The notes beneath the pieces were generated by a model. That model ran no database searches. It was given only the letters and a program-made list of their open reading frames with translations, and was not told where the DNA came from. From Escherichia coli (GTDB lineage Bacteria; Pseudomonadota; Gammaproteobacteria; Enterobacterales; Enterobacteriaceae), in NCBI RefSeq assembly GCF_044324785.1, contig NZ_CP172127.1: 64,000 nt of DNA; one strand, written 5' to 3'. A program made the translations under genes and the position numbers. Shown here one piece after another: positions 5,648-14,736 of the stretch. Every line of letters starts with the position of its first letter. Positions within the stretch are counted from its first letter, which is position 1.

Positions 5648-6025
5648 AAAGCACGTGAACACACACACAGAAAGAAATAACAAAAACACAATATTTCAAT
5701 ACGTTAATGAAAGCGTTAATTTTAAAACATAGACCATGAAAATATAAAACAACCATAACAGACAAATAATGTATCAATAAGCAATGAACTTTAAGTTATT
5801 CACTTTTTGAAAACGTCACCAAATCCCCAAAAACAATAATCTATGGCTATAAATAAAAATTAAAAATATTTTCAATGAATATAAATTTATTGCTATTTCT
5901 ATTACAAAGATGTCCTGGCCTCTCTTTCATTCTCTTCTTGTCAACATCGCGACAACTTTCGTAAAACATCCCCACCCTGCTTCAGGTATACTATGCCCCT
6001 CGATTCCACAAACATCAGGCAGACC

Positions 6026-7000
6026 ATGACAGACTTAATCCAACGCCCTCGTCGCCTGCGCAAATCTCCTGCGCTGCGCGCTATGTTTGAAGAGACAACA
6101 CTTAGCCTTAACGACCTGGTGTTGCCGATCTTTGTTGAAGAAGAAATTGACGACTACAAAGCCGTTGAAGCCATGCCAGGCGTGATGCGCATTCCTGAGA
6201 AACATCTGGCACGCGAAATTGAACGCATCGCCAACGCCGGTATTCGTTCCGTGATGACTTTCGGCATCTCTCACCATACCGATGAAACCGGCAGCGACGC
6301 CTGGCGGGAAGATGGACTGGTGGCGCGTATGTCGCGCATCTGCAAGCAGACTGTGCCAGAAATGATCGTCATGTCAGACACTTGTTTCTGTGAATACACT
6401 TCTCACGGTCACTGCGGTGTGCTGTGCGAGCATGGCGTCGACAACGACGCGACTCTGGAAAATTTAGGCAAGCAAGCCGTGGTTGCAGCTGCTGCAGGCG
6501 CAGACTTCATCGCCCCTTCCGCCGCGATGGACGGCCAGGTACAGGCAATTCGCCAGGCGCTGGACGCTGCGGGCTTTAAAGACACGGCGATTATGTCGTA
6601 TTCGACCAAGTTCGCCTCCTCCTTTTATGGCCCGTTCCGTGAAGCTGCCGGCAGCGCATTAAAAGGCGACCGCAAAAGCTATCAGATGAACCCAATGAAC
6701 CGTCGTGAGGCGATTCGTGAGTCACTGCTGGATGAAGCCCAGGGCGCAGACTGCCTGATGGTTAAACCTGCTGGAGCGTACCTCGACATCGTGCGTGAGC
6801 TGCGTGAACGTACTGAATTGCCGATTGGCGCGTATCAGGTGAGCGGTGAGTACGCGATGATTAAGTTCGCCGCGCTGGCGGGTGCTATAGATGAAGAGAA
6901 AGTCGTGCTCGAAAGCTTAGGTTCGATTAAGCGTGCGGGTGCGGATCTGATTTTCAGCTACTTTGCGCTGGATTTGGCTGAGAAGAAGATTCTGCGTTAA
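6026..7000 (+). CDS. hemB: Porphobilinogen synthase (delta-aminolevulinate dehydratase), 324 aa
   Basis: Protein [27 protein letters not shown]… recognised as HemB. Start placed at ATG 6026 rather than the ORF-track start 5993, giving 324 aa. Confidence 0.9.
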
Positions 7001-7008
7001 TGTTCATT

Positions 7009-7032
7009 ATGCCGGGTTATCCAACCCGGCAT
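7009..7032. terminator. Hairpin between convergent hemB and tauD (possible bidirectional terminator)
   Basis: Perfect inverted repeat ATGCCGGGTT / AACCCGGCAT with 4-nt loop, followed by TTCCCCC; no clean U-tract. Confidence 0.4.
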
Positions 7033-7039
7033 TTCCCCC

Positions 7040-7891
7040 TTACCCCGCCCGATAAAACGGTTTATCCCCAAGGATCGTCGCCCGATGCATTATCCGCCGC
7101 TGTGGCAGGTAATCCGCATTGGCATAGTGCTGGGTTACGCGGTTATCCCAAATCGCAATATCATTTGGTTGCCAGCGCCAGCGCACCTGAAACTCCGGTT
7201 TGGTGATGTGGGCAAACAAAAAACCTAACAAGGCTTCGCTCTCTTTCTCGCTGACATCAACAATTCGCGTGGTAAAGCCTTCATTCACAAACAGCGCCTG
7301 TTTACCGCTCACCGGATGCGTTCGCACCACCGGATGTAGCAACGGCGGATTTTTCGCGACCGCCTCGCGCCAGCGTTGATGCTCCTCCTCCGTTTTGCGG
7401 TATTTGTATTCCGGGAACGATTTACGGAAATCATGCTCCGCACGCAGCCCGCTCAACAGCTGGCGGAAGGGAACAGAGAGCGCCTCATAGGCCGCAATGC
7501 CGCTGGTCCAGAGCGTATCGCCGCCGGTTGAGGGTAACTCTTTCGCCGCCAGAATCGCCCCAGCAGGAGGCGTTTCAATAAATGTCACATCGGTATGCCA
7601 GTTGTCGTTATCCGGCGGATTATCGTTATGAGTATCCAGTACGATAATCTCGTCAACCCCTTCGGCATGAGGGTAAACAGGATGAATATGCAGTTCGCCA
7701 AAACGTTGGGCCAGCGCGCGTTGCTGCTGCGGCGTAATGGCCTGTTCACGCAGAAACACCACCTGATGGCGCAGTACCGCATGGTAAAGCTGTTCAAACT
7801 GGTTATCACTTAACGGGCGCGTCAGGTCAGCACCCGTAATTTGTGCGCCAATATACGGCCCCAGCGGGGTAATGCTCAGACGTTCACTCAT
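7040..7891 (-). CDS. tauD: Taurine dioxygenase (alpha-ketoglutarate dependent), 283 aa
   Basis: Recognised by sequence; last gene of the tauABCD operon. Confidence 0.9.
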
Positions 7892-8715
7892 TGTACTTCT
7901 CCATGCCAGGGCGTCAGGCGGCGCTGTAACGCGCGCAGACCCAGTTCTAAAAGAAAGGCGATAATCGCAATCACCGCGATCCCCGCCAGCACCACGTCAG
8001 TCGCGAGAAATTCACCCGCTGACTGAACCATAAATCCTAAACCGCGCGTCGCGGCAATCAGCTCCGCCGCCACCAGCGTAGACCAGCCCACACCCAGACC
8101 AATACGTAATCCGGTGAGGATTTCCGGCAGCGCGCCGGGCAAAATGACAAACCACAGCACCTGCGCACGGCTGGCACCCAGAGACTGGGCGGCACGAATG
8201 CGAACCTGCTGCGCGCTTTTCACCCCCGCCAGCGCCGACATCGCCACCGGTGCAAAAATCGCTAAATAGATCAGTAAGATCTTCGAGGTTTCGCCAATAC
8301 CAAACCAGATCACCATCAGCGGCAAATAAGCCAGCGGCGGCACCGGACGATAAAGCTCGATTATCGGATCCAGAATGCCGCGCACCGTCGGGCTTAGCCC
8401 CATGGCGATCCCGACCGGAATACCGATCAACACCGCCGCGAGTAGCGCCAGCAAAATGCGCGTCAGGCTGGCGGCCAGATGCTGCCACAAGGTGGCGTCC
8501 ATAAATCCTTGAGGTCCGGCAATAGTAAGCAGTTTTGCCAGTACCTGTTGCGGCGGCGGTAAAAACAGCGGGCTAATCAGTTGCAGCGCCGCCACTGCCC
8601 ACCATACAGTGAGTAAAATCGCTAACGTGCCAATGCTTAAGGTCACCTGACGCGAGAGCGGCCAGCGCCATTTCAGCCGACGCGAATGCAGTTTTTCATT
8701 GATGAGCACACTCAT
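7888..8715 (-). CDS. tauC: Taurine ABC transporter permease, 275 aa
   Basis: Polytopic membrane protein; 4-bp overlap with tauD and tauB typical of the tau operon. Confidence 0.9.
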
Positions 8716-9479
8716 GAGAATGCCTCCCGTTGCTCAAATACGCGGCTTAAAACATATTCGCGCATGGCGATGAATTGTGGATCGGACTTGATGCTGCGGC
8801 TCGGTTCCCCGGCAACAAAGCGGCGGGCGAAGTTGAGCGGCAGCCGCTCCAGCACACGGCCAGGGCCGGGTGAAAGCAGAACCAGTTCGGTTGCCATAAA
8901 CACCGCTTCTTCTATATCGTGGGTAATCAACAGCACCTGCTTACCTGTCTCCTGCCAGAGTTTCAGCAGCAGAGTTTGCATCTGGTCGCGGGTGAAGGCG
9001 TCCAGCGCACCAAACGGTTCGTCGAGTAATAACAGCTGGGGATTCGCCGCCAGCGCGCGGGCAATCCCCACCCGCTGACGTTGACCGCCGGAAAGCTGCC
9101 AGATGTAGCGTTTTTCTGCCCCTTCCAGCCCCACTTTTTTCAGCATATGGTGCGCGATTTCCAGTCGCTGCATTTTCTCAACACCTGCCAGTTGCAGGCC
9201 GAACGCCACGTTGTCCCGTACATTGCGCCACGGTAGCAGCCCTTCATTCTGAAAAACTACGCCACGCTCTGCTCCCGGCCCCTCAATGCGTTTGCCCGCC
9301 AGTTGAATACTGCCGTGCTGATAAGGCACAAAACCGGCAATCAGATTCAGCAGGGTGGTTTTACCGCAGCCGGACGGCCCCAGCACCACCAGTAGCTCGC
9401 CGCTTTCCAGCGTCAGGTTGATATCTTCCAGCGCCGGTTTGCCGCCATAATCGGCATAGAGATGAGAGATTTGCAGCAT
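8712..9479 (-). CDS. tauB: Taurine ABC transporter ATP-binding protein, 255 aa
   Basis: Walker [10 protein letters not shown] and ABC signature LSGGQRQRV visible. Confidence 0.9.
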
Positions 9480-9491
9480 CTGCGCCTCCTT

Positions 9492-10454
9492 TTATTGCAC
9501 GAAGCGCGAGGTAACGTACTGGCTGTAATCGTTCGCTACAGCCGGGACTTTGCCCTGCTCTTTCAAAAACTGCGCGGTGTCGATGATCGCTTTGTTCACC
9601 GGTCCGATCAGTTCTGCCGTTTGCTGCTGCGGCGTCAGATAGGTATTCCCCTTCACCAGCCCCGGAACGTCACCTTCAGGCACGCCGCTTAACCGCGCCA
9701 GTTTGCTGATGTTTTCAGGCTGTTTCAGCCACGCGTCTGGGTTAGCAATGTACGGTTGCTGAGCATCGATGGCGCTTTTGGCGAACGCTTTCACGACCTC
9801 TGGATGTTTCTCGGCAAAATCTTTGCGCACCACCCAGACGTCCAGTGTCGGCGCGCCCCACAGCCCGACCTGTTCAGAATCGGTCAGCACCTTGCCGTCT
9901 TTTTCCAGGGCGTTAACCGCCGGTGCCCAGACATAAGCACCATCAATGTCTCCCCGTTGCCATGCGGCGATAATCGCGGGTGGCTGCAGGTTCACTATCT
10001 CCACTTGTCCGGGTTTTATACCCCAGTGTTTCAGCGCCGCCAGCAGGCTGTAGTGGGTGGTGGAGATAAACGGTACGGCGATGCGTTTGCCAATCAGATC
10101 TTCCGGTTTGCTGATAGTTTTCTTTACCACCAGCGCTTCGGAGTTACCCAGTTTTGACGCCAGCAAGAAGACTTCAATCGGCACCTGTTGGCTGGCTGCA
10201 ACCGCTAATGGGCTGGAACCGAGGTTGCCGATTTGCACGTCGCCTGAAGCCAGCGCCCGCACGATGCTGGCTCCGCTGTCAAACTTACGCCAGTCAACGC
10301 TCGCCCCACTCTCTTTAGCAAAGGTGTTATCAGCCTGAGCCACTTTCGCCGGTTCAGCGGAGGTTTGATAGGCCACGGTGACGTTCACCGCCTGTGCCTG
10401 AAAAGCGATGAATGCCAGTGCGGCAAGAAGTGTGTTACGCGATGAAATTGCCAT
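9492..10454 (-). CDS. tauA: Taurine ABC transporter periplasmic binding protein, 320 aa
   Basis: Start placed at ATG 10454 (MAISSRNTLLAALAFIAFQAQA signal peptide); the ORF-track start 10511 is an upstream extension. Confidence 0.85.
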   Translation of the reverse strand: MAISSRNTLLAALAFIAFQAQAVNVTVAYQTSAEPAKVAQADNTFAKESGASVDWRKFDSGASIVRALASGDVQIGNLGSSPLAVAASQQVPIEVFLLASKLGNSEALVVKKTISKPEDLIGKRIAVPFISTTHYSLLAALKHWGIKPGQVEIVNLQPPAIIAAWQRGDIDGAYVWAPAVNALEKDGKVLTDSEQVGLWGAPTLDVWVVRKDFAEKHPEVVKAFAKSAIDAQQPYIANPDAWLKQPENISKLARLSGVPEGDVPGLVKGNTYLTPQQQTAELIGPVNKAIIDTAQFLKEQGKVPAVANDYSQYVTSRFVQ

Positions 10455-11060
10455 GATTGTCTGCTCCCCTGTCTTGTTATAGGAGCAGTATTCAGGAATA
10501 AAAACATTCATTAAAAGAATTAGTCGTTATCGCACAGATGATTTTATTCTTAGCAAAAAAGCGGCAAAGGAAAGATTAAATATGCAATTACACCCACTCT
10601 GACAATTCAGTAAGTTACTGCACTTCATTTTATTAATGCATAAACAAGCAGATTATAATGTCTTTTATTTTATTAACAGCAATACATATAATGAAACCAT
10701 CATATTCACATCGCATATATAACTGTGTCATTCTCAATCAACCACATAATATATTCACATCATGTATATAATCCATATTTGCGCATAGAACATATTTTTA
10801 AATGTAATTAATTGACAAACTAAATCACATCTAAATACAATATATAAAACAAAATAACTATACAAACCAAACACACAAACACTTAACATATGAACTACAT
10901 AAAAGATTACGCAGTCGTATCCACGTACCTGAAAGCCCCTTATTTTTCAGCTATCAGTAATTTTTAACACTTAAATATTAGCATCTATCTGCGCCAGAGA
11001 TTACGTCTCTGCGGGCATCGTTGTGCTTGTAGTATAATAAATAAAATGGAGTGTCATTAA

Positions 11061-11732
11061 GTGGATAAGGTTTTAGATTCAGCCATCCTTTCTTCAGCAA
11101 ATAAAAGAAAGGGTATCCTTGCTATTGGCGCACATCCTGACGATATAGAATTGGGCTGTGGCGCGTCGCTCGCTCGTCTTGCAAAAAAAGGGTTCTATAT
11201 TGCAGCGGTAGTGATGACATCGGGTAATTCCGGCGTGAGTGAAATAATTAATCGACATCAGGAATCACTCGAAGCATTAAACATTTTGGGGTGTCAACAA
11301 ACTATTCATTTTAATTTTGCTGACACCCGTACTCATTTACAACTTAATGATATGATTTCCGCTCTGGAAGATGTCCTTAAAAAACAAATTCCGTCTGATG
11401 TAGAAATCATTCGTGTATACACCATGCATGATGCTGACCGCCATCAGGATCATCTTGCAGTCTATCAAGCCTCAATGGTTGCCTGTCGCGCTATTCCGCA
11501 AATTCTCGGCTATGAAACGCCAAGTACCTGGCTTTCATTTATGCCACAGGTTTTTGAATCCGTGGAAGAGGAATATTTCACCATTAAACTGGCTGCATTA
11601 AAACAGCATAAGAGCCAGGGCCATCGTGATTATATGCGCCCGGATCGCCTGCGTGCAGTTGCACAATTTCGCGGGCAACAGGTCAATAGCGATCTGGGTG
11701 AAGGCTTTGTAATTCATAAAATGATTCTTTGA
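11061..11732 (+). CDS. yaiS: LmbE/PIG-L-family putative N-acetylglucosaminyl deacetylase, 223 aa
   Basis: Motif AIGAHPDDIELGCG near N-terminus; GTG start at 11061 is the only in-frame start before the domain; TATAAT at 11033-11038 and GGAG at 11047-11050 upstream. Confidence 0.75.
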   Translation: MDKVLDSAILSSANKRKGILAIGAHPDDIELGCGASLARLAKKGFYIAAVVMTSGNSGVSEIINRHQESLEALNILGCQQTIHFNFADTRTHLQLNDMISALEDVLKKQIPSDVEIIRVYTMHDADRHQDHLAVYQASMVACRAIPQILGYETPSTWLSFMPQVFESVEEEYFTIKLAALKQHKSQGHRDYMRPDRLRAVAQFRGQQVNSDLGEGFVIHKMIL

Positions 11733-11741
11733 GCAAATTGC

Positions 11742-12938
11742 ATGAAAACCTGGATATTTATCTGTATGTCCATAGCAATGTTGCTATGGTTTTTAAGTAC
11801 GCTAAAACGTAAACCCAGTCAAAAGAAAGGCTGTATTGACGCCATTATACCTGCGTATAACGAAGGCCCGTGTCTGGCACAGTCACTGGATAATCTGCTG
11901 CGTAACCCTTATTTTTGCCGGGTAATTTGCGTAAACGACGGCTCCACGGACAATACCGAATCGGTCATGGAGGAAGTCAAACGCAAATGGGGCGACCGCT
12001 TTGTTGCCGTCACGCAAAAAAATACCGGTAAAGGTGGTGCGCTGATGAATGGCCTCAATTACGCCACCTGCGACCAGGTTTTTTTAAGTGATGCCGACAC
12101 CTATGTTCCGCCCGATCAAGACGGAATGGGCTATATGCTGGCAGAAATTGAGCGCGGTGCCGATGCCGTAGGCGGCATTCCCTCTACTGCGTTGAAAGGC
12201 GCGGGTCTGTTACCACACATCCGCGCGACCGTAAAGTTGCCGATGATTGTTATGAAGCGCACGCTACAGCAGCTCGTGGGCGGCGCACCGTTTATTATCA
12301 GCGGTGCCTGCGGGATGTTCCGTACTGATGTATTGCGTAAGTTCGGTTTCTCGGATCGTACTAAAGTCGAAGACCTTGATCTCACCTGGACATTGGTGGC
12401 AAACGGCTACCGTATTCGGCAGGCGAATCGCTGCATCGTATACCCGCAGGAATGCAACAGCCCGCGTGAGGAGTGGCGTCGCTGGCGGCGTTGGATTGTG
12501 GGCTACGCGGTCTGTATGCGCCTGCATAAAAGACTTTTATTTAGCCGCTTCGGTATCTTCAGTATATTTCCTATGCTGTTGGTTGTGCTTTATGGCGTTG
12601 GGATTTATCTCACTACCTGGTTTAATGAATTCATCACCACCGGGCCGCATGGTGTGGTGTTGGCAATGTTTCCGCTTATCTGGGTCGGCGTAGTTTGTGT
12701 TATTGGTGCTTTTAGCGCCTGGTTTCATCGTTGCTGGTTGTTGGTGCCTTTAGCGCCGCTTTCCGTTGTGTATGTATTATTAGCTTATGCCATCTGGATT
12801 ATTTATGGACTTATTGCCTTTTTTACTGGACGCGAACCTCAGCGCGACAAACCCACCCGCTATTCCGCACTGGTGGAAGCGTCAACCGCTTATTCCCAAC
12901 CTTCTGCTACAGGAACTGAAAAACTATCTGAAGCTTAA
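11742..12938 (+). CDS. yaiP: Family-2 glycosyltransferase with N-terminal TM helix and C-terminal multi-TM region, 398 aa
   Basis: GT2 motifs NDGSTDNT and SDADTYV; WRRWRRW segment resembling the QxxRW motif of processive synthases; hydrophobic C-terminal third. Confidence 0.8.
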   Translation: MKTWIFICMSIAMLLWFLSTLKRKPSQKKGCIDAIIPAYNEGPCLAQSLDNLLRNPYFCRVICVNDGSTDNTESVMEEVKRKWGDRFVAVTQKNTGKGGALMNGLNYATCDQVFLSDADTYVPPDQDGMGYMLAEIERGADAVGGIPSTALKGAGLLPHIRATVKLPMIVMKRTLQQLVGGAPFIISGACGMFRTDVLRKFGFSDRTKVEDLDLTWTLVANGYRIRQANRCIVYPQECNSPREEWRRWRRWIVGYAVCMRLHKRLLFSRFGIFSIFPMLLVVLYGVGIYLTTWFNEFITTGPHGVVLAMFPLIWVGVVCVIGAFSAWFHRCWLLVPLAPLSVVYVLLAYAIWIIYGLIAFFTGREPQRDKPTRYSALVEASTAYSQPSATGTEKLSEA

Positions 12939-13497
12939 TGTTAAAGAGAAAAACATTCAGATTGCAGACCAGGTAATTATTGATGAAACTGCAGGTGAAG
13001 TTGTTATCGGCGCGAATACCCGTATTTGTCATGGTGCCGTTATTCAGGGTCCGGTAGTGATTGGCGCAAACTGCCTGATAGGTAATTATGCGTTTATTCG
13101 TCCTGACACAATAATCAGCAATGGCGTAAAAATTGGTTTTGCCACCGAAATTAAAAATGCGGTTATTGAAGCGGAATCAACGATTGGTCCGCAATGTTTT
13201 ATTGCTGACTCGGTAGTTGCAAACCAGGCATATTTGGGCGCACAAGTACGTACCAGTAATCATCGTCTGGATGAACAGCCTGTGTCTGTTCGAACTCCAG
13301 AGGGAATTATCGCTACCGGATGCGATAAATTAGGTTGTTATATCGGGCAGCATTCACGCCTTGGCGTACAAGTTATTATTTTGCCCGGGCGAATTATTTC
13401 CCCGAACACGCAACTTGGCCCACGCGTGATTGTAGAACGTAATTTACCTCCCGGAACTTATTCACTCCGACAAGAACTTATCCGTACAGGAGATTAA
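12787..13497 (+). CDS. yaiX: Hexapeptide-repeat (left-handed beta-helix) acyltransferase-like protein, up to 236 aa
   Basis: Repeated [LIV]-G-x4 hexapeptides (VIGANTRICHGAVIQGPVVIGANCLIGNYAFI…). Start uncertain: the only candidate starts (ATG 12787, ATG 12805, TTG 12814) all lie inside the yaiP 3' end in another frame. Confidence 0.65.
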   Translation: MPSGLFMDLLPFLLDANLSATNPPAIPHWWKRQPLIPNLLLQELKNYLKLNVKEKNIQIADQVIIDETAGEVVIGANTRICHGAVIQGPVVIGANCLIGNYAFIRPDTIISNGVKIGFATEIKNAVIEAESTIGPQCFIADSVVANQAYLGAQVRTSNHRLDEQPVSVRTPEGIIATGCDKLGCYIGQHSRLGVQVIILPGRIISPNTQLGPRVIVERNLPPGTYSLRQELIRTGD

Positions 13498-13498
13498 A

Positions 13499-14272
13499 AT
13501 GATAAAACGGACGTTATTAGCGGCGGTCATTTTTAGCGCATTGCCCGCTTATGCCGGGTTAACTTCCATTACCGCGGGCTACGATTTCACCGATTATTCT
13601 GGCGATCATGGCAACCGTAATTTAGCGTATGCTGAACTGGTGGCGAAAGTTGAAAACGCAACGCTGCTTTTTAATCTTTCCCAGGGGCGTCGTGATTATG
13701 AAACTGAACATTTCAATGCCACTCGCGGTCAGGGTGCGGTCTGGTATAAATGGAATAACTGGCTGACAACCCGAACGGGTATTGCCTTTGCGGATAATAC
13801 GCCGGTCTTTGCCCGCCAGGATTTTCGTCAGGATATTAACCTGGCACTGTTGCCAAAAACGCTTTTCACGACCGGTTATCGCTACACGAAATATTACGAT
13901 GATGTCGAAGTCGATGCCTGGCAAGGCGGCGTATCACTCTATACTGGCCCGGTGATCACCAGCTATCGCTATACCCATTATGACTCCAGCGATGCAGGTG
14001 GTAGTTACAGCAATATGATTTCCGTGCGTCTGAATGACCCCCGCGGCACTGGTTATACTCAACTATGGCTAAGCCGCGGCACAGGTGCTTACACCTATGA
14101 CTGGACGCCAGAAACACGCTACGGCAGCATGAAGAGCGTCAGTTTGCAACGTATTCAACCGCTGACTGAGCAACTTAATCTCGGGCTGACGGCAGGTAAA
14201 GTGTGGTACGACACCCCAACCGATGATTATAACGGTCTGCAACTTGCAGCCCATCTGACCTGGAAATTCTGA
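13499..14272 (+). CDS. yaiO: Outer-membrane beta-barrel protein YaiO, 257 aa
   Basis: Signal peptide MIKRTLLAAVIFSALPAYA, C-terminal …LTWKF; AGGAG RBS 7 bp upstream; start 1 bp after yaiX stop. Confidence 0.85.
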   Translation: MIKRTLLAAVIFSALPAYAGLTSITAGYDFTDYSGDHGNRNLAYAELVAKVENATLLFNLSQGRRDYETEHFNATRGQGAVWYKWNNWLTTRTGIAFADNTPVFARQDFRQDINLALLPKTLFTTGYRYTKYYDDVEVDAWQGGVSLYTGPVITSYRYTHYDSSDAGGSYSNMISVRLNDPRGTGYTQLWLSRGTGAYTYDWTPETRYGSMKSVSLQRIQPLTEQLNLGLTAGKVWYDTPTDDYNGLQLAAHLTWKF

Positions 14273-14384
14273 TTCCTTCTGCCGCCCGCTATCCGGGGCG
14301 GCCTTCCCTGCCGATTAGCCCCACCACCTTTCCTCTTTGTTTTCCGACCACATTCACCGGATAAATTTTATTCTCCAGTGTTAT

Positions 14385-14433
14385 ATACTATAGGGGGGTA
14401 TGCATTGACATATAGAATACCCCCCCTATAGTA
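14385..14433 (+). promoter_or_regulatory. frmR promoter and operator: perfect 16-bp inverted repeat with G6/C6 tracts around the -35/-10
   Basis: ATACTATAGGGGGGTA (14385-14400) and TACCCCCCTATAGTAT (14418-14433) are exact reverse complements; TTGACA at 14405-14410 and TATAGT at 14427-14432 lie between/within them. Confidence 0.75.
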
Positions 14434-14460
14434 TATTGCATGCAGATGATGAGGTGCGAA

Positions 14461-14736
14461 ATGCCCAGTACTCCGGAAGAGAAGAAAAAGGTCCTTACTC
14501 GAGTTCGTCGTATTCGGGGGCAGATTGATGCTCTGGAACGGTCGCTGGAGGGTGATGCCGAATGCCGTGCCATACTCCAACAGATCGCTGCCGTTCGGGG
14601 CGCGGCTAACGGGCTGATGGCAGAAGTGCTTGAAAGCCATATCCGGGAAACGTTTGACCGAAATGACTGCTACAGCCGCGAAGTCAGCCAATCCGTTGAC
14701 GACACTATTGAACTGGTTCGTGCCTATCTTAAATAG
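14461..14736 (+). CDS. frmR: Formaldehyde-responsive repressor FrmR (CsoR/RcnR family), 91 aa
   Basis: Protein [30 protein letters not shown]…; RBS GAGGTG 5 bp upstream of ATG 14461. Confidence 0.9.

Follow-up and report, generated by a model that had tools for sequence, protein, structure and literature searches.

A conserved four-gene cassette, yaiSPXO, with the predicted parts for making and exporting a glucosamine-based glycan in Escherichia coli

Results

The window analyzed here, a 64,000-nt stretch of the Escherichia coli contig NZ_CP172127.1, carries the genes yaiS, yaiP, yaiX, and yaiO (yaiSPXO) between positions 11061 and 14272. We rate the chances as about even that this operon builds a glycan based on N-acetylglucosamine or glucosamine (GlcNAc/GlcN) at the inner membrane, delivers it to the cell surface, and promotes cell–cell aggregation. 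Judged by their family relationships, all three enzymes, YaiP, YaiS, and YaiX, point to GlcNAc/GlcN chemistry. The original prediction had read the locus as an intact, cryptic module for synthase-dependent polysaccharide export, and its parts list was borne out: the four co-directional open frames are present, they are spaced as described (a 9-bp gap between yaiS and yaiP, an overlap of yaiP and yaiX, and a 1-bp gap between yaiX and yaiO), and Pfam and profile searches returned the PIG-L, family 2 glycosyltransferase (GT2), hexapeptide, and YaiO barrel assignments. The motifs it had named (AHPDD, DxD, and a QxxRW-like WRRWRRW) also stood up in alignments with orthologs and with PgaC. It had further stated that no product was known for the locus. 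Our literature search found no paper naming one, but a phenotype is on record: one sentence in EcoGene 3.0 (2013), which itself cites a 2011 meeting abstract, states that K-12 cells with a repaired yaiX' more readily undergo "clumping during vegetative growth", an effect that needs YaiP (PMC3531124).

Conservation of the Four-Gene Module

We surveyed genome contigs by a profile scan with a YaiP alignment and examined 24 loci from Escherichia, Citrobacter, Superficieibacter, Ignatzschineria, Stenotrophomonas, Lysobacter, Acinetobacter, Pseudomonas, and Sphingomonas-type genomes. The order S-P-X-O on one strand was kept in every one of them, with unrelated flanks, and no further open reading frame (ORF) family was common to different genera within 5 kb on either side of the cassette. 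YaiP orthologs were about 65–85% identical in Citrobacter, Salmonella, and Yersinia, 60–69% identical in Stenotrophomonas, Lysobacter, Pseudoxanthomonas, Acinetobacter, and Pseudomonas, and 52–54% identical in Sphingomonas-type genomes. Because synteny is complete and no other neighboring family is shared, there is strong sequence evidence that yaiSPXO is a self-contained, horizontally mobile four-gene module, and the earlier proposal that the four genes form one functional unit was upheld on the same grounds. Mobility is also in keeping with the lower GC content and with a further, island-borne copy in E. coli; some E. coli hold only this second copy, which is 90.7% identical and lies on a genomic island. 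The island and duplicate copies are direct evidence that the cassette moves.

The island copy (survey locus L009) lies at 5824–9030 of NZ_CP192626.1 in E. coli C8, next to IbrB-like and PAPS-reductase genes and remnants of IS66 and ISL3. Citrobacter braakii ATCC 51113 holds two copies of the cassette (L019 and L022).

The ratio of nonsynonymous to synonymous substitution rates (dN/dS, pairwise Nei–Gojobori) ranged from 0.06 to 0.33 over the four genes, with yaiS at about 0.12, versus about 0.01 for frmA. By this measure all four genes are under purifying selection. Given these ratios and a gene order kept in 24 of 24 loci, the sequences indicate that yaiS, yaiP, yaiX, and yaiO are real genes rather than chance ORFs.

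YaiP, a Predicted Processive-Type Glycosyltransferase

YaiP matched the GT2 families PF00535, PF13641, PF13632, and PF13506 in Pfam, and its best NCBIfam match was PgaC_IcaA (TIGR03937; E 3.7e-29, residues 22–286). At 101.9 bits this match falls below the equivalog cutoff of 422.3, and on sequence YaiP is best classed as a PgaC homolog, not an ortholog. When the YaiP profile was aligned with E. coli PgaC (hhalign), the probability was 99.4% (E 7e-22, 29% identity) and the alignment extended through the QxxRW position. NDGSTD is identical in the two proteins, DAD (residues 117–119) pairs with DGD, SGACGMFR with SGVIAAFR, and EDLDLTW with EDIDISW, the ED lying at YaiP 210–211. Since R247-W-R-R250-W251-IVG of YaiP aligned with QRLRWAQG of PgaC, the WRRWRRW string is a genuine (Q/R)xxRW motif.

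A Kyte–Doolittle scan gave four hydrophobic segments in YaiP (approximately residues 3–23, 264–294, 301–329, and 330–364), an N-terminal signal segment alone in YaiO, and none in YaiS or YaiX. The AlphaFold2 model of YaiP (pLDDT 82.6) has an N-terminal transmembrane (TM) helix followed by a GT-A domain; RWRRW lies on an interface helix, and then come three TM helices toward the C terminus and a tail modeled as disordered. Its best fold matches among solved structures were hyaluronan synthases (TMq 0.65–0.67, about 400 columns) and BcsA (0.55). Sequence and profile searches of YaiP against the PDB gave matches confined to the generic GT2 nucleotide-binding half, so the kinship with hyaluronan synthases and BcsA is one of fold alone. 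Neighbors in AFDB50 (TMq 0.72–0.78) included GT2s named as cellulose synthase-like or poly-N-acetylglucosamine (PNAG) synthase-like, many of them fused to NodB-type deacetylases. Sequence and model together place YaiP in the processive-type branch of GT2, processivity itself being a prediction. In the TM region, W314 and W352 are invariant among orthologs and Y344, Y349, and H329 are near-invariant.

Following the last TM helix, the YaiP tail carries a nearly invariant stretch, TGREPxRDKPTRY (residues 362–374, window about 12825–12863), that is predicted to be disordered. By helix count the tail would be periplasmic, though it is rich in Arg and Lys; it could serve in docking or in regulation.

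YaiS and YaiX, Putative Cytoplasmic Tailoring Enzymes

YaiS matched PF02585 (PIG-L) with an E-value of 9e-23 and carries both AHPDD and HxxH, the combination that marks the PIG-L/LmbE family (carbohydrate esterase family 14, CE14). Its closest solved relatives are archaeal diacetylchitobiose deacetylases (Dac), to which it aligns over its full length. Residues A24-H25-P26-D27-D28, H128-Q-D-H131, and seven C-terminal residues are invariant in 18 YaiS orthologs. From the MshB and Dac structures, we take the AHPDD and HQDH residues to be the metal and catalytic ligands.

YaiX matched Hexapep and left-handed beta-helix (LbH) families in Pfam. Its best NCBIfam match was the C-terminal acetyltransferase domain of archaeal GlmU (E 2.5e-38), at 132 bits versus 46 for LpxD, and its best PDB match was residues 241–397 of Sulfolobus ST0452 (E 3e-24), the glucosamine-1-phosphate N-acetyltransferase domain. 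R105, E121, and K123 are invariant in 18 YaiX orthologs and presumably correspond to the sugar-phosphate ligands of GlmU; in the E. coli enzyme, R333 and K351 bind the phosphate and H363 is catalytic.

Both the ORF translations and the Kyte–Doolittle scan showed no signal peptide and no hydrophobic segment in YaiS or YaiX. Because of this, the two proteins are predicted to act in the cytoplasm, before or at polymerization. The original prediction had placed deacetylation or acylation between polymerization and export. As neither YaiS nor YaiX has an export signal, this step cannot run as it does in the PNAG, cellulose, and alginate systems, whose tailoring is periplasmic, and it is here that the cassette departs most from their model.

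Four start codons are candidates for yaiX, at 12787, 12805, 12916, and 12973. The ATG at 12805, 134 nt inside yaiP, is in frame and conserved among enterics, and the starts given by RefSeq are equivalent to 12916 or 12973. In non-enteric orthologs, yaiX begins 14 nt into yaiP, at a conserved ATG ("MWW..."); enterobacterial yaiX has His at that codon ("HWW"), together with a longer YaiP tail.

YaiO, a Predicted Outer Membrane Barrel

YaiO belongs to the YaiO family by its matches to PF19413 (E 5e-26) and to TIGR04390, the latter at 184.3 bits over the full length of the model with a cutoff of 32. Its structure is predicted with confidence to be a 14-stranded barrel, in the class of CymA and OmpG, and its best matches are carbohydrate channels, although sequence identity to CymA and OmpG is 7–11%. 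The model contains no FadL-type N-terminal hatch. The N-terminal signal segment and the barrel model agree with the signal-peptide outer membrane barrel proposed originally, and YaiO has been placed in the outer membrane experimentally (Marani et al., 2006, as cited in PMC4453288). A phmmer search of 1.84 billion proteins and a profile search found no protein in which a YaiO domain is fused to a tetratricopeptide repeat (TPR) domain in the manner of PgaA, BcsC, and PelB; full-length matches were almost all stand-alone proteins of about 250–290 aa. From strand parity, the charge of the lumen is crudely estimated at about +3, near neutral and rich in Tyr, Ser, and Thr, a value too weak to indicate the charge of a polymer.

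Locus Layout and Its State in K-12 and Other E. coli

In the window, the cassette follows tauCBA (minus strand) and an AT-rich spacer of about 550 bp, and is followed by frmRAB; coordinates are given in Table 1.

Table 1. Coordinates in the window of the yaiSPXO genes and upstream elements.
Feature	Coordinates	Strand	Description	Basis or detail
yaiS	11061..11732	+	GTG start, 223 aa; predicted cytoplasmic PIG-L/LmbE (CE14) zinc de-N-acetylase	PF02585
yaiP	11742..12938	+	398 aa; predicted inner-membrane GT2 of the PgaC/IcaA/hyaluronan synthase (processive-type) branch	1 N-terminal + 3 C-terminal TM segments
yaiX	12805..13497 (frame open from 12787; start uncertain)	+	predicted cytoplasmic left-handed beta-helix (hexapeptide) acyltransferase-like protein; overlaps yaiP 3' end	
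yaiO	13499..14272	+	257 aa; predicted Sec-signal outer-membrane 14-stranded beta-barrel with short loops, without plug or TPR domain	
tauA/yaiS divergent spacer	10512..11060	.	AT-rich; probable H-NS-silenced regulatory region of yaiSPXO	
candidate yaiS promoter	10812..10841	+	sigma70-like TTGACA-18-TACAAT, 11/12 match	consensus scan

Alignment with K-12 confirmed the expected IS2 insertion inside yaiX, at approximately window 13085–13089. K-12 has a second lesion, a stop at codon 186 of yaiS (window 11616–11618), which deletes the seven C-terminal residues that are invariant across the 18 orthologs. We sampled 15 native loci from non-K-12 E. coli at intervals down the match ranking, and in all 15 the four frames were full-length and free of stops, as they were in the island copy. 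The original prediction had set the open frames of this window against the K-12 locus, an emphasis that turned out to be wrong: since the frames are open in all of the sampled loci, the sequences indicate that an intact cassette is usual for E. coli and not special to this window, with K-12 the exception. At least 80% of the region 10400–14500 is present in 4250 of 5426 complete E. coli genomes, or about three in four. O157:H7-type genomes lack the locus and have an ABC transporter and a uhpC-like gene in its place, BL21 has an IS1-associated deletion that leaves yaiO alone, and one sampled strain (ES1) has an IS1 insertion in the locus.

In 13 of the 15 sampled non-K-12 genomes, RefSeq (PGAP) labels yaiS "pseudogene, missing C-terminus". 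We considered and rejected the idea of widespread yaiS decay that these flags would imply, as the 223-codon frame is open in every one of the 15. An antisense ORF, YkiC, is annotated in all 13 flagged genomes and in neither of the two unflagged ones, which suggests that the pseudogene flag is an annotation artifact caused by the YkiC call. In the window, an intact 39-aa YkiC-like ORF (MNYKAFTQIAIDLLPAKLCNCTQAIRAHIITMALALMLF) lies on the minus strand at 11598–11717, nested antisense in the 3' end of yaiS. YkiC has been detected in K-12 by epitope tagging (PMC6001520), and its stretch is "intergenic" there only because yaiS is truncated.

A divergent tract with sharp edges runs from 10550 to 11740 of the window, with 75–91% identity to the typical E. 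coli allele versus 97–100% in the flanks. It spans the AT-rich promoter region, which is 75–85% identical to that of other E. coli, and the whole of yaiS, and it ends exactly at the start of yaiP. YaiS of the window matches that of strain N3 at 100% identity but that of most E. coli at 88% (dS about 0.5), and the island copy has 62% identity in YaiS and 96% in YaiP. In view of the divergence of YaiS both in the window and in the island copy, the segment comprising the promoter and yaiS behaves as an exchangeable, hypervariable unit.

Upstream Region and Regulation

The spacer has a GC content of 0.29–0.36 versus approximately 0.55 in the flanks, and a genomic SELEX study includes the corresponding K-12 region among its H-NS sites (PMC3946193). 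The same study assigns the TTGACA/TACAAT hexamer pair to yaiS (PMC3946193). Over the promoter and terminator scan as a whole, the number of sites was not above that in shuffled controls, and the yaiS promoter is a lead, not a proof. The AT-rich spacer, the H-NS listing, and the promoter together fit a silenced ("cryptic") foreign operon, and the label "cryptic" used in the original prediction is consistent with them. An Rfam scan of 10400–14500 gave no riboswitch, including any for cyclic di-GMP (c-di-GMP), and its sole match was a chance microRNA hit (E 0.08). Shine–Dalgarno sequences are weak or absent at yaiP and yaiX, as PMC13058169 also supports, and an antisense RNA within yaiP is on record (PMC4666370).

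Upstream of frmR, a near-consensus TTGACA-16-TATAGT lies at window 14405–14432 and matches the K-12 frmR promoter hexamers (PMC3946193).

Discussion

In the polymer reading that we prefer, YaiP, with its catalytic domain in the cytoplasm, would draw on UDP-N-acetylhexosamine (UDP-HexNAc), either UDP-GlcNAc or one of its derivatives, to build a beta-linked chain; probably acting as an oligomer, it would pass that chain through its own TM segments. In the cytoplasm, YaiS would de-N-acetylate a precursor, primer, or chain end that contains GlcNAc, and YaiX, as a GlmU-like LbH N-acyltransferase, would re-acylate the free amine and so set the N-substituent of the product. The monomeric 14-stranded barrel of YaiO would form the outer membrane conduit, and the AT-rich, H-NS-type upstream region would normally keep the operon low. 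The sequences and models establish that the genes are intact, what domains and motifs they encode, which proteins are cytoplasmic and which belong to the envelope, the kinship of YaiP with PgaC, the barrel fold of YaiO, the conserved module, and purifying selection. What we infer is which sugar is used, how long the chain grows, in what order YaiS and YaiX act, which acyl group is attached, and that the product crosses the inner membrane via YaiP and the outer membrane via YaiO.

A number of observations weigh against a polymer. Searches of the four proteins (Pfam and NCBIfam) and of the conserved neighbors within 5 kb found neither a TPR scaffold nor a c-di-GMP receptor, and nothing resembling the PgaD/IcaD partner subunit. 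YaiO is no nearer to PgaA, BcsC, or PelB than to generic 12–16-stranded barrels. The view of YaiP as a membrane GT2 synthase stands as far as its processive-type branch is concerned, but a self-sufficient glycan channel is unproven, because YaiP has four hydrophobic segments where the same scan gave five for PgaC and two for its partner PgaD. To our knowledge, four TM segments are fewer than in any structurally characterized translocating synthase. Among the AFDB50 neighbors of YaiP, proteins named beta-monoglucosyldiacylglycerol synthase occur at similar TMq (0.76–0.77), these names being automatic annotations. At the position where ST0452 has H308, which we take to be the equivalent of GlmU H363 and the catalytic base, YaiX has Pro135 (window about 13189–13191, numbering from 12787), invariant in 18 orthologs. 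Some LbH N-acetyltransferases work without a catalytic base, and YaiX may use a base-independent mechanism or be non-catalytic. Cytoplasmic tailoring would, by analogy, fit oligosaccharide or lipid-linked pathways better than a polymer extruded as it is made, and the sole phenotype is one line citing a meeting abstract.

Cytoplasmic tailoring, the small TM complement, and the OmpG/CymA/FadL-like barrel give weight to two other explanations, which keep the same enzymes but end in a small product. In one, which we regard as unlikely though deserving of attention, YaiP would, like NodC, make a short GlcNAc oligosaccharide that stays at the cytoplasmic face, YaiS would deacetylate its non-reducing end in the way of NodB and archaeal Dac, YaiX would N-acylate it, and the resulting (lipo-)oligosaccharide would leave through YaiO, much as in the Nod-factor pathway. 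The cytoplasmic location of both YaiS and YaiX suits this scheme, as do the full-length alignment of YaiS with a diacetylchitobiose deacetylase, the nearness of YaiO to the oligosaccharide channels CymA and OmpG, and the build of YaiP itself, 398 aa with a 1+3 TM layout and no partner subunit, a layout that we take to be that of NodC. The NodC equivalog model (TIGR04242, cutoff 550), however, gave YaiP 29 bits over the N-terminal half only, versus 102 bits for PgaC_IcaA; the cassette has no inner membrane exporter, while Nod factors use NodIJ; clumping is more typical of a polymer; and YaiX is nearer to the acetyl-CoA-dependent GlmU type than to the acyl-carrier-protein-dependent LpxD type by the scores given above. 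The other explanation is a lipid-linked amino sugar or glycolipid, which we consider improbable: YaiP would add one or a few GlcNAc residues to undecaprenyl phosphate or diacylglycerol, YaiS and YaiX would deacetylate and N-acylate them, and YaiO would handle the amphiphile in the manner of FadL. PIG-L enzymes characteristically act on a GlcNAc-aglycone fresh from its glycosyltransferase, as in the glycosylphosphatidylinositol (GPI), mycothiol, bacillithiol, aminoglycoside, and teicoplanin pathways, and the tailoring enzymes of the cassette are likewise predicted to be cytoplasmic. YaiP also matches Glyco_transf_21, the ceramide glucosyltransferase family (E 1e-7), and has the diacylglycerol-synthase neighbors just mentioned, whose automatic names carry less weight. 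Such a pathway sits poorly with a cassette and conserved flanks that contain no flippase and no GT-C (ArnT-type) transferase, with a YaiO model that lacks the FadL-type hatch, and with the solved polyprenyl-phosphate GT2s (GtrB, ArnC, DPMS), which match YaiP through the generic GT domain only (TMq 0.35–0.38). More broadly, we hold it to be a minority possibility that the cassette is not for polymer secretion at all but is a compact route, built from non-homologous parts (PgaC-type GT2, CE14 deacetylase, GlmU-type LbH transferase), to a glucosamine oligosaccharide or glycolipid that is tailored and N-re-acylated in the cytoplasm, resembles a Nod factor or lipid X, and is shown or released via the 14-stranded barrel. 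If this were true, it would be an unrecognized class of surface or signal molecule, spread horizontally among enteric and environmental Proteobacteria.

Two further explanations are far less probable. Were yaiSPXO a silent or decaying remnant that no longer does anything in E. coli, with frames that are open only by accident, this would account for the independent losses (IS2 and a nonsense codon in K-12, the IS1 deletion in BL21, IS1 in ES1, and absence from O157:H7), for the many truncated YaiO entries in databases, for the H-NS-type upstream region, and for the weak or absent Shine–Dalgarno sequences of yaiP and yaiX. We think this very improbable given the dN/dS values, the open frames in all 15 sampled loci, the invariant catalytic motifs, the phenotype of the K-12 repair, and the identity of YaiP and the constant gene order across gammaproteobacterial orders and into Sphingomonas-type genomes. 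A pathway to a small soluble glycoside, akin to bacillithiol or mycothiol, in which a glycosyltransferase, a PIG-L deacetylase, and an amine-modifying enzyme act in turn, is suggested by the top NCBIfam matches of YaiS, which are BshB1 (TIGR04001), BshB2, Mca, and MshB. All of these matches are far under their cutoffs, the best, BshB1, reaching 73.7 bits where 182.5 are needed; YaiP is a GT2 that spans the membrane several times, where a soluble GT4 would be expected; the outer membrane barrel is always present; and the cassette and its conserved flanks contain no cysteine ligase. We see hardly any likelihood in this pathway.

The genes, their families, and a hint of a phenotype are already on record, and the locus is hence not categorically new. 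Searches of the literature for yaiS with PIG-L, the YaiO family, PF19413, and TIGR04390 found no functional study. A 2026 paper reports multidrug tolerance upon overexpression of a 71-aa YaiX fragment from K-12, notes a 236-aa form in other strains, and leaves glycans unmentioned (PMC13058169), and yaiO is in use as a polymerase chain reaction (PCR) marker for E. coli, with O157:H7 negative (PMC4453288). The fragment in the drug-tolerance result stems from a gene split by IS2. For the marker, the consequences are that PCR for yaiO misses O157:H7 and that close yaiO homologs exist in E. whittamii and Citrobacter. The known matrix glycans of E. coli are cellulose, PNAG, colanic acid, capsule, O-antigen, and enterobacterial common antigen, to which the yaiSPXO product would add another; such a product would have been missed because K-12 has two lesions, BL21 has a deletion, and O157:H7 is without the locus.

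We know of no characterized pathway that combines the part families of yaiSPXO. The closest comparison, and the one drawn originally, is with PNAG (pgaABCD/hmsHFRS/icaADBC) and cellulose systems, and it holds for the PgaC-type GT2 and for the presence of an outer membrane barrel but not for the TPR scaffold, the c-di-GMP receptor, the PgaD partner, or periplasmic tailoring. Like the PNAG operons, yaiSPXO has four genes that include a de-N-acetylase and an outer membrane barrel, its PgaC homolog aligns at all catalytic motifs, and the aggregation phenotype is similar. Unlike them, it encodes a cytoplasmic CE14 (PIG-L) enzyme where PgaB is a periplasmic CE4 lipoprotein, it has an extra LbH transferase and no PgaD partner, its synthase has one TM segment fewer than PgaC, and it contains no recognizable c-di-GMP module. 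Of the five defining features of synthase-dependent secretion systems, the inner membrane GT2 with D, DxD, ED, and QxxRW is present in YaiP, the outer membrane export porin has a candidate in YaiO, and yaiSPXO lacks three: no c-di-GMP co-polymerase or receptor (PilZ, PgaD, Alg44, PelD) was recognized, with the Arg-rich tail of YaiP as a possible cryptic site; there is no periplasmic TPR scaffold, YaiO being a barrel only and no TPR gene being conserved nearby; and there is no periplasmic polymer modification, YaiS and YaiX belonging to cytoplasmic families. A PgaC-type synthase that works without a TPR scaffold or c-di-GMP receptor, and with cytoplasmic tailoring, would be a minimal test case for what Gram-negative glycan export needs. 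Class I hyaluronan synthases and BcsA provide the best solved folds for YaiP, including the interface helix and TM region, and share D, DxD, ED, and (Q/R)xxRW; they differ in that YaiP lacks a PilZ domain, its TM helices are fewer, and sequence similarity is undetectable past the nucleotide-binding half.

The logic of attaching a HexNAc, de-N-acetylating it, and re-acylating it in the cytoplasm is that of Nod factor, lipid A, GPI, NaxD/Lgm, and teicoplanin biosynthesis. In NodC-NodB-NodA (with NodIJ), a GT2 oligomerizes GlcNAc, and cytoplasmic deacetylation and re-acylation follow, all before export, as may be proposed for yaiSPXO; no part is orthologous, the deacetylase being CE14 rather than CE4, the acyltransferase LbH rather than of the NodA fold, and a barrel standing in place of the ABC exporter. 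The teicoplanin (Orf2*/Orf11*), GPI (PIG-A/PIG-L/PIG-W), mycothiol, bacillithiol, LpxC/LpxD, NaxD/LgmC, and ArnC/ArnD pathways resemble the cassette in their sequence of HexNAc attachment, de-N-acetylation, and amine derivatization, and in a PIG-L family enzyme, an LbH N-acyltransferase (LpxD), and a cytoplasmic location. They differ from it in that YaiP is a PgaC-type polytopic GT2, not of the GT4 or ArnC type, and in that the cassette has an invariant barrel and no flippase, GT-C, or ligase. CymA and OmpG, finally, are the nearest barrels to YaiO, which has very short loops and lacks the N-terminal plug of CymA. Unlike these channels, YaiO is encoded in a biosynthetic, not a catabolic, operon, a setting that implies export rather than uptake.

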